A DNA stretch of 64,000 bases from Escherichia coli. GTDB lineage: Bacteria; Pseudomonadota; Gammaproteobacteria; Enterobacterales; Enterobacteriaceae. Shown here in pieces: positions 2,983 to 41,433 of this stretch. Position 1 is the first letter of the stretch. The number at the start of each line of letters is the position of its first letter. Location: assembly GCF_003334335.1 (NCBI RefSeq), contig NZ_QOWQ01000023.1; one strand, 5' to 3'. Under the pieces are notes generated by a model. The model did no database searches. It saw only the letters and a list, made by a program, of their open reading frames with translations, and was not told the DNA's origin. A program made the position numbers and the translations under genes.

Positions 2983-5805
2983 ATGGATAAGATCGAAGTT
3001 CGGGGCGCCCGCACCCATAATCTCAAAAACATCAACCTCGTTATCCCCCGCGACAAGCTCATTGTCGTGACCGGGCTTTCGGGTTCTGGCAAATCCTCGC
3101 TCGCTTTCGACACCTTATATGCCGAAGGGCAGCGCCGTTACGTTGAATCCCTTTCCGCCTACGCGCGGCAGTTTCTGTCACTGATGGAAAAGCCGGACGT
3201 CGATCATATTGAGGGGCTTTCTCCTGCCATCTCAATTGAGCAGAAATCGACGTCTCATAACCCGCGTTCTACGGTGGGGACAATCACCGAAATCCACGAC
3301 TATTTGCGTTTGTTATTCGCCCGCGTTGGCGAGCCGCGCTGTCCGGACCACGACGTCCCGCTGGCGGCGCAAACCGTCAGCCAGATGGTGGATAACGTGC
3401 TGTCGCAGCCGGAAGGCAAGCGTCTGATGCTACTCGCGCCAATCATTAAAGAGCGCAAAGGCGAACACACCAAAACGCTGGAGAACCTGGCAAGCCAGGG
3501 CTACATCCGTGCTCGTATTGATGGCGAAGTCTGCGATCTTTCCGATCCGCCAAAACTGGAACTGCAAAAGAAACATACCATTGAAGTGGTGGTTGATCGC
3601 TTCAAGGTGCGTGACGATCTTACCCAACGTCTTGCCGAGTCATTTGAAACCGCGCTGGAGCTTTCCGGTGGTACCGCGGTAGTGGCGGATATGGACGACC
3701 CGAAAGCGGAAGAGCTGCTGTTCTCCGCCAACTTCGCCTGCCCAATTTGCGGCTACAGTATGCGTGAACTGGAGCCGCGACTGTTTTCGTTTAACAACCC
3801 GGCGGGGGCCTGCCCGACCTGCGACGGCCTTGGCGTACAGCAATATTTCGATCCTGATCGAGTGATCCAGAATCCGGAACTGTCGCTGGCTGGTGGTGCG
3901 ATCCGTGGCTGGGATCGCCGCAACTTCTATTATTTCCAGATGCTGAAATCGCTGGCAGATCACTATAAGTTCGACGTCGAAGCGCCGTGGGGCAGCCTGA
4001 GCGCGAACGTGCATAAAGTGGTGTTGTACGGTTCTGGCAAAGAAAACATTGAATTCAAATACATGAACGATCGTGGCGATACCTCCATTCGTCGTCATCC
4101 GTTCGAAGGCGTGCTGCATAATATGGAGCGCCGCTATAAAGAGACGGAATCCAGCGCGGTACGCGAAGAATTAGCCAAGTTTATCAGTAATCGTCCGTGC
4201 GCCAGCTGCGAAGGGACGCGTCTGCGTCGGGAAGCGCGCCACGTGTATGTCGAGAATACGCCGCTGCCTGCTATCTCCGACATGAGCATTGGTCATGCGA
4301 TGGAATTCTTCAACAATCTCAAACTCGCAGGTCAGCGGGCGAAGATTGCAGAAAAAATCCTTAAAGAGATCGGCGATCGTCTGAAATTCCTCGTTAACGT
4401 CGGCCTGAATTACCTGACGCTTTCCCGCTCGGCAGAAACGCTTTCTGGCGGTGAAGCACAGCGTATCCGTCTGGCGAGCCAGATTGGTGCGGGCCTGGTT
4501 GGCGTTATGTACGTGCTGGACGAGCCGTCTATCGGCCTGCACCAGCGTGATAACGAGCGCCTGTTGGGTACGCTTATCCATCTGCGCGATCTCGGTAATA
4601 CCGTGATTGTGGTGGAGCACGACGAAGACGCAATTCGCGCCGCTGACCATGTGATCGACATTGGCCCGGGCGCAGGTGTTCACGGCGGTGAAGTGGTCGC
4701 AGAAGGTCCGCTGGAAGCGATTATGGCGGTGCCGGAGTCGTTGACCGGGCAGTACATGAGCGGCAAACGCAAGATTGAAGTGCCGAAGAAACGCGTTCCG
4801 GCGAATCCGGAAAAAGTGCTGAAGCTGACAGGCGCACGCGGCAACAACCTGAAGGACGTGACGCTGACGCTGCCGGTGGGTCTGTTTACCTGCATCACCG
4901 GGGTTTCAGGTTCCGGTAAATCGACGCTGATTAACGACACACTGTTCCCGATTGCCCAACGCCAGTTGAATGGGGCGACCATCGCCGAACCAGCACCGTA
5001 TCGCGATATTCAGGGGCTGGAGCATTTCGATAAAGTGATCGATATCGACCAAAGCCCAATTGGTCGTACTCCACGTTCTAACCCGGCGACCTATACCGGC
5101 GTGTTTACGCCTGTGCGCGAACTGTTTGCGGGCGTACCGGAATCCCGTGCGCGCGGCTATACGCCGGGACGTTTCAGCTTTAACGTTCGTGGCGGACGCT
5201 GCGAGGCCTGTCAGGGCGATGGCGTGATCAAAGTGGAGATGCACTTCCTGCCGGATATCTACGTGCCGTGCGACCAGTGCAAAGGTAAACGCTATAACCG
5301 TGAAACGCTGGAGATTAAGTACAAAGGCAAAACCATCCACGAAGTGCTGGATATGACCATCGAAGAGGCGCGTGAGTTCTTTGATGCCGTACCTGCACTG
5401 GCGCGTAAGCTGCAAACGTTGATGGACGTTGGCCTGACGTACATTCGACTGGGGCAGTCCGCAACCACCCTTTCAGGCGGTGAAGCCCAGCGCGTGAAGC
5501 TGGCGCGTGAACTGTCAAAACGCGGCACCGGGCAGACGCTGTATATTCTCGACGAGCCGACCACCGGTCTGCACTTCGCCGATATTCAGCAACTGCTCGA
5601 CGTACTGCATAAACTGCGCGATCAGGGCAACACCATTGTGGTGATTGAGCACAATCTCGACGTGATCAAAACCGCTGACTGGATTGTCGACCTGGGACCA
5701 GAAGGCGGCAGTGGTGGCGGCGAGATCCTCGTCTCCGGTACGCCAGAAACCGTCGCGGAGTGCGAAGCATCACACACGGCACGCTTCCTTAAGCCGATGC
5801 TGTAA
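2983..5805 (+). CDS. uvrA: excinuclease ABC subunit A UvrA (940 aa)
   Basis: Full-length ORF; two ABC ATPase modules ([18 protein letters not shown]) and zinc-finger cysteines. Confidence 0.97.
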
Positions 5806-37123: not shown

Positions 37124-39220
37124 TTAGCGGAAATTGACGCTACGGTCGCTGGTCATGTCATACAACTGGAACTTACGCCCAAGTTGCTGACCACCGTCAC
37201 GCGTCAGCGGCGTCCAGCCAATCGCCGCACGGCTGCGTGTCGGGCCAGACGAGAAGAGATCCAACGGTACCGAGACATACACGCCTTTGGTGAAGTCCCC
37301 TTCGCCGTACTCCTCTTTCGAAACATTAGTGATCGTGGCATAGCCACCCACCACCACGCCGCTATCAAAGCGTTTGGCGATCTCCAGCGTGCCGCCTTTA
37401 TCCCCTGCCAGATACTGCCCGACGCTGGCTTTAACTAACACATCCTGAGCGAAAGATGGCGTCCAGTAGGCGGTCAGATGTCCGGTTTTCACGCTGTAGT
37501 CGGTGAATTTCATCATATCTTTTGCACTACGCCAGTCGCGCTGTTTAACGTAGTTGGCATCCAGACCAAACGCCCAGTTGCTGTCCAGCGGGCGATACAA
37601 CACTTCTGCCCCCGCACCGCCAAACATGGTTTCGAGATAACCACCGTAGACCTGACCGTAGAAGCCGTTGCCCAGATGCTGGAAGTAGTTGGCTTGCAGG
37701 TTATTCACATAGACATCGTTCTGCACATACTCGCGCACATGGGTACGCACGCGCGGTAAGTGCGAGTCCTGCGGAGGATTAGTGTAGTTAAACTTGTCGT
37801 AGTTGTTGGCAAGATTTGCAAACAGGCTGCCGGTGGTCAGCAGATGGTCCGTCAGCCACAAATCTGCCGTTCCCATCACGCCCAGCTGATACATGTAAAA
37901 GTTTTCCGGGCCACCGACCGACTGGTTCAGCACCGGATCGATATGGAAATCAAAGCGTGATTTGTCGATATACCAGCCCTGCTCGGTGGACTGCGGAACC
38001 ACTGGCTCGACGCGTTTTTGCGCCAGCGTCGTTTCGTGGCCCAACGGCTCTCCGGCGAGATGATTTTTCAGGCTGGCGACATCGGTTTCCGTCGTCACCT
38101 GCGGCATGTTAAGGCGATTTTCCGTAATGCGGATCGTTTTGATCCCATCCGGCAGATCGTTCATCACGATCCGATTCGCACGGATGATCCCTTCGCGCGA
38201 ATCACGATATTTCACCTGCTCGCCGGTAACATACAGCGTATCGCCTTTCGCCTGGATCTGTGGATCGGCAAGTCCGGCATTGTATTTCAACAGCGTTAAC
38301 TGATTCGCCACCACCGAATGCTGCAAAATGGCATCCTGCGGCTGCGGTTGATATTGCGGGCGGGCGTTATCGTTGTAAGACGGGCGCAGATCGTTAAAGT
38401 TGGTGCGCAACGTAACGCCAAACATAAAGGTGTTGCCACGTTCATAGCTAAGGTTAACGTCGGCCCAATCGGTAACGCGATAAATCGCACCGACGTTAAA
38501 CTTACTTTTTTGCTCCAGCTTCCCGGCAAAATCCTGCTGATAATTATTGCCTTCATACTCCAGTTTCAGGCGCAGCGGTTGCCAGGGCGTCTGGTATTCC
38601 ACGCCGCCAAACAGTGAGGCAGGACCGTGGAACATCTGGCTACCGTCGATAGATCCCGCCTGTTTGTAGCTGTTATCGCGATAGCAATATTTATCACTGG
38701 CTGAACAGAGCGGATTTTTCACATTACCGCTGGTGCCCAAATATCCCCAGCCCAGGCCGAGCGTAAAATCGAACGGCCCCCAGGCTTTGCTGGCAACAAG
38801 ATATTCCGCATCAAACAGCCCCGTACCGCCGATATCCCGCGCACCAACCGCCACTTGCGGCAGCCAGTAACTCTCTTCCCACAAACGCAGTTTGAGATCG
38901 AAGGCTTTATCTTTATACGTTTGATCGCCAGAGAACGCTTCGACGCTGCTGTACTGCCGGGTGCGCACGTCGGTGTAGCGCAGCGTTGTTTCCAGCCACG
39001 GGAAGAGTTGCACTGAAGCTGAGTAATAACGGTACTGATCGTTATCGCGATAGTTCAGACTCAACTCCCCTTCCCGTGCCATACGCGCGGTGGGCGTTTG
39101 TAATAATCCTACGCCACCGAAATCCGACTGCGACGGACCAATGGGCGCAGGATATGTTTCGCCGTAGCAAGCTGTGCTAATGCCCAGCGCCAGTAAGCTA
39201 AGCAGATGTCTTTTTTTCAT
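37124..39220 (-). CDS. yjbH: YjbH, outer-membrane protein of the yjbEFGH exopolysaccharide operon (698 aa)
   Basis: [20 protein letters not shown] signal; beta-rich, ends in aromatic residue (...SVNFR); start overlaps yjbG stop (TAATG). Confidence 0.85.
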
Positions 39221-39957
39221 TATTGAGGTATCCGCTGCGTCAGAGTCTGAAGAATGTCGGCGTTAAGGGCATCAGGCGTCTCACTCCAGACGGAGTCCGC
39301 GAGGCCAACATAAATAATGCTGCCGGGCATCGGCTCTACGTGACGCTTGTTCCAGTAAGCCACCGGCGCTTTTTGCGTGCGTCCGTCCGGGTAAACCACC
39401 CACGCGTAGCTGCGATCCGCACCGCTGAGCAGGCTCTGGTCAGAGAGATAGCTCGCCACGTCGCGACCTGGAGTGAATGGCTGCTTGCCAGGACGGCTGA
39501 TAAGCCCGAACAACGTGACCGTGGACGGCGGTGGTCCGACCCACAGCGTGTAGTTGCCCTGCAACGGCGGGTTACCGCGTTCGGCAACGCGGACGATATC
39601 GGGATCAAGATTGATTTTTTGCCTGCCCGTCACTTTCAACGCCTGAATTTGCTGGCGTAAGGCGTTAATCGCAGCGGCATCGTCGGCGCTGGAATCTGCG
39701 CCCTGTTCTGCCAGCCGTGTCAGCAACGCCTGCTGCTGACGCAATGCTGCCGCCGTTGCCAGCTCTTCGCTAATCACCGCACCGGGCCACCAGCTGTTTG
39801 CCAGCCGCGGTTGGCCTACCAGATCGATTAAATGCTCTGCGCCCGTTAGCGTTTTGGCCTCACTGCTGCCATTGCTGAACACCTTGACGGTTCCTGCCGC
39901 GAAGACCGATGACGCTCCCACACTCAAAAGCAACGCGACAATAGTTTGTTTAATCAT
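39220..39957 (-). CDS. yjbG: YjbG periplasmic protein (245 aa)
   Basis: [20 protein letters not shown] signal; ATG at rc(39955..39957) overlapping yjbF stop. Confidence 0.8.
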
Positions 39958-40592
39958 TGTTTTGCCGCCTTGATGAGAGTGGTTTTCACCGGAAAATAAT
40001 CCGCGCCGAGATACTGTTCCGACTGGCGAATTTGCCCTTCGCTGTCGATCCAATAGCGGTTATGCCAGCGCGCCTGGTCGGTGGAGACTTCTTCGTCCAG
40101 CACGCGAACCGGGGTTTCATCGCTGCCGACTTTGACGGTATCGGTGCCATCCCATTTGAAGACTGAGCGTGCGGTGGCGTAGCGTACCTGCTGGTACTCG
40201 GTCCAGCCCATCGTGCGCGTCCAGCTTGCGCCATCAACGATTTGTGCGGGTTTAATCAGCGGGTCGGCAGCAAGGTTATTCACTTCAATCAGGTTGTCGC
40301 CGCCGAGCAGAGTCTTCACCAGACGGCCATGTTGGGTAACGAGAGTAGCCTGATCCTGAGTGACCCATTTTTGTTGTCCGTCTTCAGCGAAGGCCAGCAC
40401 CACAAATAACTGCGGCCCGCCATTAAGCTGCATGTACTGGCTGGCGTAGGGCATATTTTGAATATCATCATCCGTCAGCTGTACGCCTGGCGTGCCGAAC
40501 AGACTGTCCCACAGTGAATTGCCCAGCTCTTTAGTCGTGGCTGAACAGGCCTGTAATAACAGGCAGATAAGAATGAGTGCAGGTCGCTTCAC
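39954..40592 (-). CDS. yjbF: YjbF lipoprotein (about 212 aa)
   Basis: GTG start at rc(40590..40592); lipobox LLLQAC. Confidence 0.8.
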   Translation of the reverse strand: MKRPALILICLLLQACSATTKELGNSLWDSLFGTPGVQLTDDDIQNMPYASQYMQLNGGPQLFVVLAFAEDGQQKWVTQDQATLVTQHGRLVKTLLGGDNLIEVNNLAADPLIKPAQIVDGASWTRTMGWTEYQQVRYATARSVFKWDGTDTVKVGSDETPVRVLDEEVSTDQARWHNRYWIDSEGQIRQSEQYLGADYFPVKTTLIKAAKQ

Positions 40593-40705
40593 GACTCTTC
40601 TCCAGAGGGGCAGAATAACCACACCGGAGTGTGGTTATGGTTAATCCCTTCATACTTCTAGCCACAGATGCAATGACTCGAATTATTTTGGGGATACATA
40701 CTTTA

Positions 40706-40948
40706 TTACTGGGTACTGGTGGTCGTGGTTGTGGTGGTCCCGGTATTAGAACCATCACCGCCACCGGTTGCCGCAAGCGCGACACCCACCGCCGAGCTTA
40801 CGGTGCTGACGCTGGTCGCGGAGGAACTCCCCGCCGAAACCGACGTTGCTGCCGACCCTGCCGCTTCGCCCACCTGTACAGGTGCAGCCCACGCAGAAGT
40901 CGCCGCAAGCGCAGATATGGCAAAAATGCCATACAGAACTTTTTTCAT
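40706..40948 (-). CDS. yjbE: YjbE, small secreted Ala/Ser/Thr-rich protein (80 aa)
   Basis: [21 protein letters not shown] signal, then low-complexity A/S/G/T sequence ending in a TTTTTTT run. Confidence 0.75.
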
Positions 40949-41255
40949 AACAATTTCCCTTCATTGAATGAATGGAGATTTACCCAAAAACATTTCGGGC
41001 GGGATCGAGTATACACAACTAAAGCATGCGAATTACGGCGCGGGGAATTAGCGATGGCGTTTTAGGATAATTGGAATGAATATCAAATATAAGTTTCAAC
41101 TTATATTTAAATAACAATAAAAATCATAAACTTAAAATAAAAACAAAAGCAATTAATCTGCGTATTTTCCGAAATAAACAACGATTAAAAATCTATTTTA
41201 GGATTAACCTCATGGTATGATTTCCGTTAAATCACAGACAAGGGGATTTATCTGA

Positions 41256-41283
41256 TAAAAAAATGCCGACATAACGTCGGCAT
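41256..41283 (-). terminator. intrinsic terminator distal to pgi (after the 3'-UTR REPs)
   Basis: ATGCCGAC-ATAAC-GTCGGCAT stem followed on minus strand by TTTTTTT. Confidence 0.7.
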
Positions 41284-41356
41284 TGTTATTAAGGTTATTT
41301 AATCAATCGTGCTATGTATTAATTGCCGAATACGATGTACATATCGGCATCGACCT

Positions 41357-41433
41357 GTAGGCCTGATAAGACGCGACCGCGTCGCATCAGGCATCGGTTG
41401 CCGGATGCGGCGTGAACGCCTTATCCGGCCTAC
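41357..41433. repeat. REP pair (BIME) immediately 3' of pgi
   Basis: GTAGGCCTGATAAGACGCGACCGCGTCGCATCAGGC and GCCGGATGCGGCGTGAACGCCTTATCCGGCCTAC. Confidence 0.9.

Follow-up and report, generated by a model that had tools for sequence, protein, structure and literature searches.

yjbEFGH of Escherichia coli, a probable Rcs-induced envelope module paralogous to gfcABCD, and the conserved seven-threonine tract of YjbE

Four consecutive genes, yjbE, yjbF, yjbG and yjbH, lie on the minus strand of a 64,000-nucleotide (nt) stretch of Escherichia coli DNA (RefSeq assembly GCF_003334335.1, contig NZ_QOWQ01000023.1; the whole stretch is called the window below, and positions are counted from its first letter). 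They form the known K-12 operon yjbEFGH, very probably an envelope module that is induced by Rcs and paralogous to the gfcABCD section of the group 4 capsule operon. An earlier note on this DNA, made from the letters alone, had proposed that a run of threonine codons near the end of yjbE is a slippage-prone site that varies between strains; the run is instead a conserved motif of the peptide, in which in-frame slippage by hexanucleotides occurs occasionally, and is not a phase-variation device. The operon has already been described in E. coli and nothing is added here to its published picture, as the gfc paralogy, the translational coupling, the Rcs control and the architecture of YjbH have all been published. 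The two points of the earlier note that would have been new (an aromatic last residue in YjbH and a variable threonine tract) are wrong and the rest repeats published knowledge. The genes are as follows.

40706-40948, minus strand: yjbE, 80 residues; open reading frame (ORF) with a match to Pfam PF11106; product identical to b4026
39954-40592, minus strand: yjbF, GTG start, 212 residues; ORF with a match to PF11102
39220-39957, minus strand: yjbG, 245 residues; ORF with GfcC_N and GfcC_C domains
37124-39220, minus strand: yjbH, 698 residues; ORF with a match to PF06082

The boundaries of all four ORFs agree with the RefSeq annotation of strain MG1655, so that the four-gene operon placed here from the letters alone stands, and all four proteins are 100% matches to E. 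coli K-12 MG1655 b4026-b4029. Over the 3825 nt of the operon there is a single base change relative to MG1655, which is synonymous (window position 38744). When complete E. coli genomes were searched with a 4.3-kb query at a coverage of at least 80%, the operon was present in 5414 of 5426, nearly always as one chromosomal copy, and yjbEFGH is thus a core locus of the species. As all four ORFs have full-length Pfam matches and the operon is part of the species core, they are real genes and not chance reading frames. A scan of the four Yjb proteins against NCBIfam matched no family.

The relationship with gfcABCD is clear for three of the four proteins. In BLASTP comparisons with the K-12 proteins, YjbF and GfcB share 39% identity (E = 2e-54), YjbG and GfcC 42% (E = 2e-67) and YjbH and GfcD 65% (E = 0), in each case over essentially the full length; this part of the paralogy suggested in the earlier note holds on pairwise alignment, and the part concerning YjbE and GfcA is taken up below. 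Like yjbEFGH, gfcABCD begins with a gene for a small, secreted Thr-rich protein and continues with those for a lipoprotein, a GfcC protein of the periplasm and an outer-membrane protein with two barrels; it has the same 4-nt and 1-nt overlaps, a tail motif common to the two first proteins and a hairpin after the first gene. The two operons differ in their surroundings and control: gfc is contiguous with wza/wzb/wzc paralogues (gfcE-etp-etk), whereas yjb lacks these and adjoins pgi (no sugar-synthesis, polymerase or Wza/Wzc genes adjoin it), is under RcsA-RcsB control and has an undefined polymer (PMC5461412). Because adjacent gfcE-etp-etk genes are missing, yjb is a paralogue of a sub-module and not a group 4 capsule operon. 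Homologous capsule or exopolysaccharide (EPS) transport modules have been described in Vibrio (wbfD-wbfC-wbfB in V. cholerae O139, orf1-wbfDCB in V. anguillarum) and in Aeromonas (gfc) (PMC8592465, PMC11494523), and these loci are likened to yjb here on their description in the literature. In distant loci from Arsukibacterium and a gammaproteobacterial metagenome-assembled genome (MAG) the four-gene unit lies inside a polysaccharide cluster, with a dehydratase/sugar-transferase-like protein, GalU and a MOP flippase encoded upstream of the module, and in a gfc-type locus a Wza-like exporter follows it.

YjbF (PF11102, E = 8.6e-64) has the lipobox read in the earlier note (LLQAC16) with Ser, an outer-membrane-type residue, at +2; it is predicted to be an acylated outer-membrane lipoprotein of the GfcB/YmcC family, and it matches PDB 2in5 (lipoprotein YmcC, which is GfcB) with E = 3e-43. 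Just before its GTG start lies GGAGAAGAGTC, which is invariant in the enterobacterial loci compared. YjbG belongs to the GfcC family and is periplasmic, its signal peptide ending in VFA before AG; it carries GfcC_N (PF20616) at residues 20-142 (E = 1e-49) and GfcC_C (PF06251) at 156-244 (E = 1e-42) and matches PDB 3p42 (GfcC) with E = 2e-55. The yjbF stop and yjbG start share the 4 nt ATGA (39954-39957) and the yjbG stop and yjbH start share 1 nt within TAATG (39220), exactly the overlaps that had been read from the letters. The order E-F-G-H is kept in 21 of 21 related loci, and the F/G (4 nt) and G/H (1 or 4 nt) overlaps in most of them, including the distant Arsukibacterium loci. Conserved order and overlaps fit coupled translation, an idea raised in the earlier note and already proposed in print for both gfc and yjb (PMC8592465). 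In many YjbH homologues of about 950-1400 residues the YjbH domain is fused to a GfcC/YjbG-like module at the N-terminus (homologue P0055, for example, has GfcC_N at 33-130 and the YjbH domain at 348-1016), and such fusions provide independent support for a physical association of G with H. GfcB and GfcC have been reported to bind GfcD (PMC8592465, PMC9603273).

YjbH residues 30-691 match positions 1-657 of the 658-position PF06082 model (E = 1.3e-270). An AlphaFold2 model built from 44 aligned sequences (mean predicted local distance difference test score, pLDDT, 88.9; predicted template modelling score 0.87) has a 12-strand barrel at about residues 52-274, a periplasmic alpha/beta domain at 301-388, a 13-strand barrel at 423-669 and a tail at 670-698, the last barrel strand (664-669) thus being followed by about 29 residues. 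The model would make YjbH a two-barrel outer-membrane protein and reproduces the published GfcD/YjbH architecture, in which 12 plus 13 strands are accompanied by a lateral opening and a C-terminal plug (PMC11494523) and the N-terminal barrel is described as FapF-like and the C-terminal one as PgaA-like (PMC9603273). In the model the 12-strand barrel appears KdgM/FapF-like and the 13-strand barrel seems to resemble the polysaccharide porins PelB, PgaA and BcsC. YjbH is thus a barrel protein, as expected in the earlier note, although the argument used there fails: YjbH was said to end in an aromatic residue, but its sequence closes with ...VNFR, in which the final residue is Arg and Phe stands before it (the end of GfcD is ...PVGQ). 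A sequence search of solved structures gave no relative for YjbH. Its signal peptide has Ser at -3 and no canonical lipobox, and its RefSeq name is putative lipoprotein; GfcD has been shown to be a non-acylated integral outer-membrane protein. The YjbH/GfcD family comprised 2661 clusters in our search of a representative library and has been reported as a multi-barrel family of 4187 proteins (PMC8346858). The likenesses in fold go only so far. Identity to FapF (the Pseudomonas functional-amyloid exporter) and to the 12-strand porins KdgM and NanC is 12-13%, YjbH lacks a FapF-type plug or coiled coil, the yjb locus lacks amyloid subunit genes, and a FapF/KdgM-like fold by itself cannot separate protein from sugar export. 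The barrels of PgaA, PelB and BcsC have 16-18 strands and that of LptD 26, against 13 in YjbH, which has no tetratricopeptide repeat (TPR) domain, and those proteins, unlike YjbH, are tied to synthase-dependent or Lpt pathways.

YjbE is a secreted low-complexity protein. Its Sec signal peptide is cleaved between AWA and AP, after residue 21, and the mature part consists of 22% Thr, 20% Ser, 19% Ala and 15% Gly (76% for the four together, with a further 12% Val), which confirms the signal peptide and the compositional bias noticed earlier; residues 1-79 match the 79-position model PF11106 (E = 5.5e-33). The C-terminal tail runs from a hydrophobic stretch through GDG and NT to seven threonines and STQ, and the tract of interest is the following.

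40718-40738, minus strand: seven-threonine tract of yjbE (ACC ACC ACA ACC ACG ACC ACC), in the conserved C-terminal tail, with STQ after it

The earlier note was right that the run of seven Thr is encoded by an imperfect triplet tract; its coordinates (40709-40735) were off by one codon, missing the first and including Ser-Thr-Gln. In an even sample of 60 E. coli genomes across the ranking of matches, 57 had a match span of exactly 271 nt for a 271-nt query; one had a 1-nt frameshift in yjbE (annotated as a pseudogene), one (strain 510016) a 6-nt deletion inside the tract that leaves five Thr, and one an IS1 insertion in yjbE. Exactly seven Thr codons are present in about 98% of 5421 E. coli genomes, the remainder amounting to about 104 genomes (about 2%) when counted with a 5-Thr query; with the K-12 query, 75 of the 5421 fell in the 90-95% identity band. 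Queries specific for 6-Thr and 8-Thr alleles found neither in the E. coli genomes. The main 9-Thr allele, present in 74 genomes (e.g. H1827/12) and identical in sequence in most of them, reads ACC ACC ACA ACC ACA ACC ACA ACC ACC, with ACCACA three times; a second one, in a K-12-type background (PRO_A-1429), has an ACCACA duplication and reads ACC ACC ACA ACC ACA ACC ACG ACC ACC. One genome (an O100:H21 strain) has 12 Thr through a 15-nt duplication, and the 5-Thr class can be bounded to between 1 and about 11 genomes, since in many of the 104 non-7-Thr records a 9-Thr allele had been matched as two separate segments. All length variants (5, 9 and 12) stay in frame, in steps of 6 or 15 nt.

The same number of threonines is found well outside E. 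coli. Loci from other genera were retrieved by YjbF/GfcB alignment followed by inspection of the small upstream ORF, and exactly seven Thr were seen in nine genera including Escherichia, that is, in eight further enterobacterial genera: the loci were those of Escherichia whittamii, four Citrobacter species, Huaxiibacter, Pseudenterobacter, Lelliottia, Superficieibacter, Pluralibacter, Buttiauxella and one uncultured relative. The tail before the run is conserved and ST(Q/R) follows it, with minor variants in two Pluralibacter loci; the Mixta equivalent has six Thr. Between genera the Thr codons (ACC, ACA, ACG or ACT) differ synonymously at many positions, and the persistence of seven Thr despite such free codon change points to purifying selection on the peptide. 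A word-indexed homologue search with YjbE itself returned mostly frameshifted or truncated fragments, and exact look-up in a collection of 15 billion proteins was uninformative, as neither wild-type YjbE nor synthetic variants with 4 to 10 Thr were on record there.

These data bear directly on the proposal that the tract is a contingency site that varies YjbE between strains by phase or antigenic-type variation, which we regard as highly improbable and already largely refuted: length variants do occur (5 Thr, two 9-Thr alleles on different backgrounds and 12 Thr), every change being in whole repeat units as slipped-strand events would give, but only some 2% of genomes depart from seven, the 6-Thr and 8-Thr steps are missing, the codons vary between genera while the seven Thr remain, the identical sequence carried by most of the 74 genomes with the main 9-Thr allele fits inheritance over frequent switching, and ON/OFF switching is impossible because the tract is an imperfect triplet run whose variants stay in frame. 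What marks a contingency locus is a long perfect repeat whose length changes shift the frame or the promoter spacing, together with high tract-length polymorphism among close strains, and the yjbE tract has neither. Of the slippage idea in the earlier note there thus survive the rare 5-, 9- and 12-Thr variants, and phase variation falls. A tract that is a constrained peptide motif directs experiments to the tail of YjbE and away from strain variation.

YjbE and GfcA show no similarity by BLASTP (E = 65), and HHalign aligned their signal peptides alone (probability 77%), so that the paralogy claimed for this pair finds no support from these methods beyond the signal peptide. The C-terminal ends are more alike than their composition: a local alignment of the last 30 residues scored 57, whereas composition-matched shuffles gave 31 +/- 5.5 and did as well in 1 case of 2000, and the whole mature proteins scored 83 against 65 +/- 8 (60 of 2000 as good). 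Both endings have a hydrophobic stretch of Val, Gly and Ala, followed by the motifs GDG and NT and then by a Thr run; GfcA is 35% Thr, whereas YjbE is Ser-rich (20%). From operon position, architecture and the common tail we infer that YjbE and GfcA are equivalent and homologous. Every related locus examined, the distant ones included, starts with a small Thr-rich ORF that has a signal peptide. In the distant loci of Arsukibacterium and the gammaproteobacterial MAG (at about 3420-3850) the small secreted protein encoded first contains a poly-Pro segment and two Cys, and its tail is GTTTTVTVTGTGTGTNTGTTTATVPVTFTYAPSVQ (of the TVTVTGTGTGT type) in place of GDGSNT-T7; a Thr-rich C-terminus is therefore family-wide, in different form.

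Four regulatory features accompany the operon.

40615-40638, minus strand: stem-loop AUAACCACAC-UCCG-GUGUGGUUAU in the yjbE-yjbF spacer, with a U/C-rich tail after it, found by folding
40949-41013, minus strand: core promoter and 5' leader of yjbE, conserved in an alignment of 12 genera
41063-41212, minus strand: upstream regulatory region with two RcsAB-box-like motifs, from a motif scan and conservation
37076-37113, minus strand: terminator-like hairpin AGGUGCCAG...CUGGCACCU followed by UUCAUUCUU, 11 nt after the yjbH stop

The 9-bp core stem of the spacer hairpin is invariant in 13 enterobacterial loci in which the spacers are 62-122 nt long and the flanks unalignable; as the stem never varies, covariation cannot test it. 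A U run follows in most genera, a hairpin and U run likewise follow gfcA, and the Mixta homologue also has a hairpin after its first gene. The structure may be a partial terminator or attenuator, or a transcript stabilizer, and may in this way give more YjbE than YjbFGH. Between the yjbE stop and this hairpin K-12 has about 52 extra nt (window 40639-40700, minus strand), an insert missing from E. coli EC-1639 (NZ_LR025101) and from most other genera and hence an indel polymorphism within the species.

Upstream of yjbE is an invariant GTTGTGTATACTCGA with a -10-like TATACT (41008-41013); a simple sigma-70 scan of this region gave no canonical promoter. A consensus fold of 14 sequences places two hairpins in the leader, the first (40982-41000) with one compensatory pair (C-G to U-A) and the second (40956-40976) invariant and pairing across the Shine-Dalgarno AAGGG, which suggests translational control. 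Taken together, these two conserved RNA features, the hairpin that follows yjbE and the folded leader covering its ribosome-binding site, suggest that the amount of YjbE is set independently of YjbFGH. Further upstream, a scan with the RcsAB box consensus TaAGaatatTCctA found TGAGGTTAATCCTA (41199-41212; 10 of 14 positions matched, including all six core positions) and TTCCAATTATCCTA (41063-41076; 9 of 14), with about 0.26 sites of at least 10/14 expected by chance in the stretch scanned. Both motifs are conserved across the 12 genera. Control of yjb by RcsA-RcsB has been reported (PMC5461412). The hairpin after yjbH folds at -25 kcal/mol (z = -2.9) and probably serves the convergent yjbT as well.

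We can now consider what the operon may do. In the reading that we favour, YjbF, YjbG and YjbH would be made in a fixed ratio by coupled translation, and the F-G pair would dock on the periplasmic side of YjbH, as is suggested by the binding of GfcB and GfcC to GfcD and by the fusion of GfcC-like modules to YjbH elsewhere. When Rcs envelope stress is on, the complex would transport a surface polymer, itself produced elsewhere, across the outer membrane or into it. YjbE would be an accessory or cargo protein, and its invariant tail appears to be under functional constraint, the most plausible reason being that it is recognised or modified. The literature agrees with the link to EPS and Rcs mentioned in the earlier note: in Salmonella the operon has been tied to peptide resistance and to an EPS that contains uronic acid (PMC5461412), and when IS1 is inserted between yjbE and yjbF or in yjbF, Rcs targets and the production of colanic acid go up (PMC8117528). 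Several points weigh against this reading. No cargo has been identified and the 'Yjb EPS' is of undetermined structure (PMC5461412). Disrupting yjb is by itself able to switch on Rcs and colanic acid production (PMC8117528), so that some of the reported EPS effects may be indirect. The F-G-H complex is extrapolated from the Gfc proteins and from gene fusions, the homology of YjbE and GfcA lacks support from BLASTP or HHalign, and the RcsAB-like motifs match the consensus at only 9-10 of 14 positions. Finally, an AlphaFold run in which mature YjbE was tethered to YjbH by a 40-residue Gly/Ser linker, with a partly paired alignment, left the YjbH part unchanged and gave pLDDT values of 22-41 over the whole YjbE part with no sign of docking; it should be noted that this run is weak, given its artificial linker, 8 paired rows and monomer model.

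Other functions have to be weighed against this transport role. One possibility, which we consider doubtful but worth keeping in view, is that YjbH exports lipid-anchored glycans through an LptD-like lateral gate, with YjbF and YjbG as periplasmic carriers and YjbE as a minor accessory. The 13-strand C-terminal barrel and the tail after its last strand in the YjbH model match the GfcD model, in which lipid A tails leave through the lateral opening in molecular dynamics (PMC11494523), and the fold of GfcB is LolA-like (PMC8592465). The evidence for such a gate is purely computational and was obtained for GfcD, however, the matches to LptD in our fold searches were weak, and strict conservation of YjbE would be left unexplained.

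It is unlikely, in our view, that YjbE is the main cargo, namely an unstructured and possibly amyloid-forming or O-glycosylated protein that leaves through the FapF-like N-terminal barrel of YjbH while the C-terminal barrel serves a polysaccharide or lipid-linked glycan, both products anchoring a capsule-like layer. Such a role would suit the presence of a small signal-peptide Thr-rich ORF at the head of every related locus examined, even the distant ones, as well as the invariant tail and the conserved hairpin after yjbE, which could give an excess of YjbE over FGH as for a structural subunit. Against it, the tethered AlphaFold run showed no docking, export of YjbE beyond the periplasm and its glycosylation are without experimental evidence, and E. 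coli K-12 is not known to have a general O-glycosylation system.

Less probable again is the view that yjb has no polymer-export role of its own and that the EPS phenotypes arise indirectly, through perturbation of the envelope that triggers Rcs and colanic acid. It would account for the IS1 phenotypes cited above (PMC8117528) and for a locus without synthesis genes. It does not sit well with the finding that the uronic-acid-containing EPS of Salmonella is lost only on deleting both wza and yjb (PMC5461412), with the homologous modules inside polysaccharide loci of other bacteria, or with a family of 2661 representative clusters that is conserved as a four-gene unit.

More speculatively, YjbE (and GfcA) could be a protein partner of the exported polymer, a capsule anchor or primer common to the YjbH/GfcD family, an idea to which we give little credence. 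YjbE would then be made in excess over YjbFGH by way of the conserved hairpin and pass through the FapF/KdgM-like barrel of YjbH, and its GDGSNT-T7-STQ tail would be recognised, glycosylated or otherwise joined to the polysaccharide; if so, translational control by the leader, which sequesters the Shine-Dalgarno sequence, would come in addition to Rcs. Among outer-membrane protein families whose function has yet to be defined by experiment, that of YjbH and GfcD is one of the largest.

Around the operon the K-12 gene order is kept, with pgi upstream and the convergent yjbT followed by psiE and xylE downstream. yjbT (window 36799-37077, plus strand) is a small convergent gene of 92 residues with a signal peptide, and its end lies near the terminator-like hairpin of yjbH (37084-37113). 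The intergenic region between pgi and yjbE has, on the other strand from yjbE, a match to the enterobacterial small RNA family STnc430 of Rfam (41145-41294, plus strand; 79 bits against a gathering score of 47) that ends at the bidirectional pgi terminator hairpin (41262-41284). A REP-type element of the Rfam family naRNA4 (CssrE) is found just downstream of pgi (41360-41430, 79.5 bits), with a weaker copy near psiE and yjbT (36664-36756). IS1 is also present within yjbE or elsewhere in the operon in natural isolates (NZ_CM169476, locus positions 665-1684; NZ_CP073996), and these insertions echo the laboratory-evolved ones (PMC8117528), which suggests that the yjb operon contains an IS1 target hot spot.

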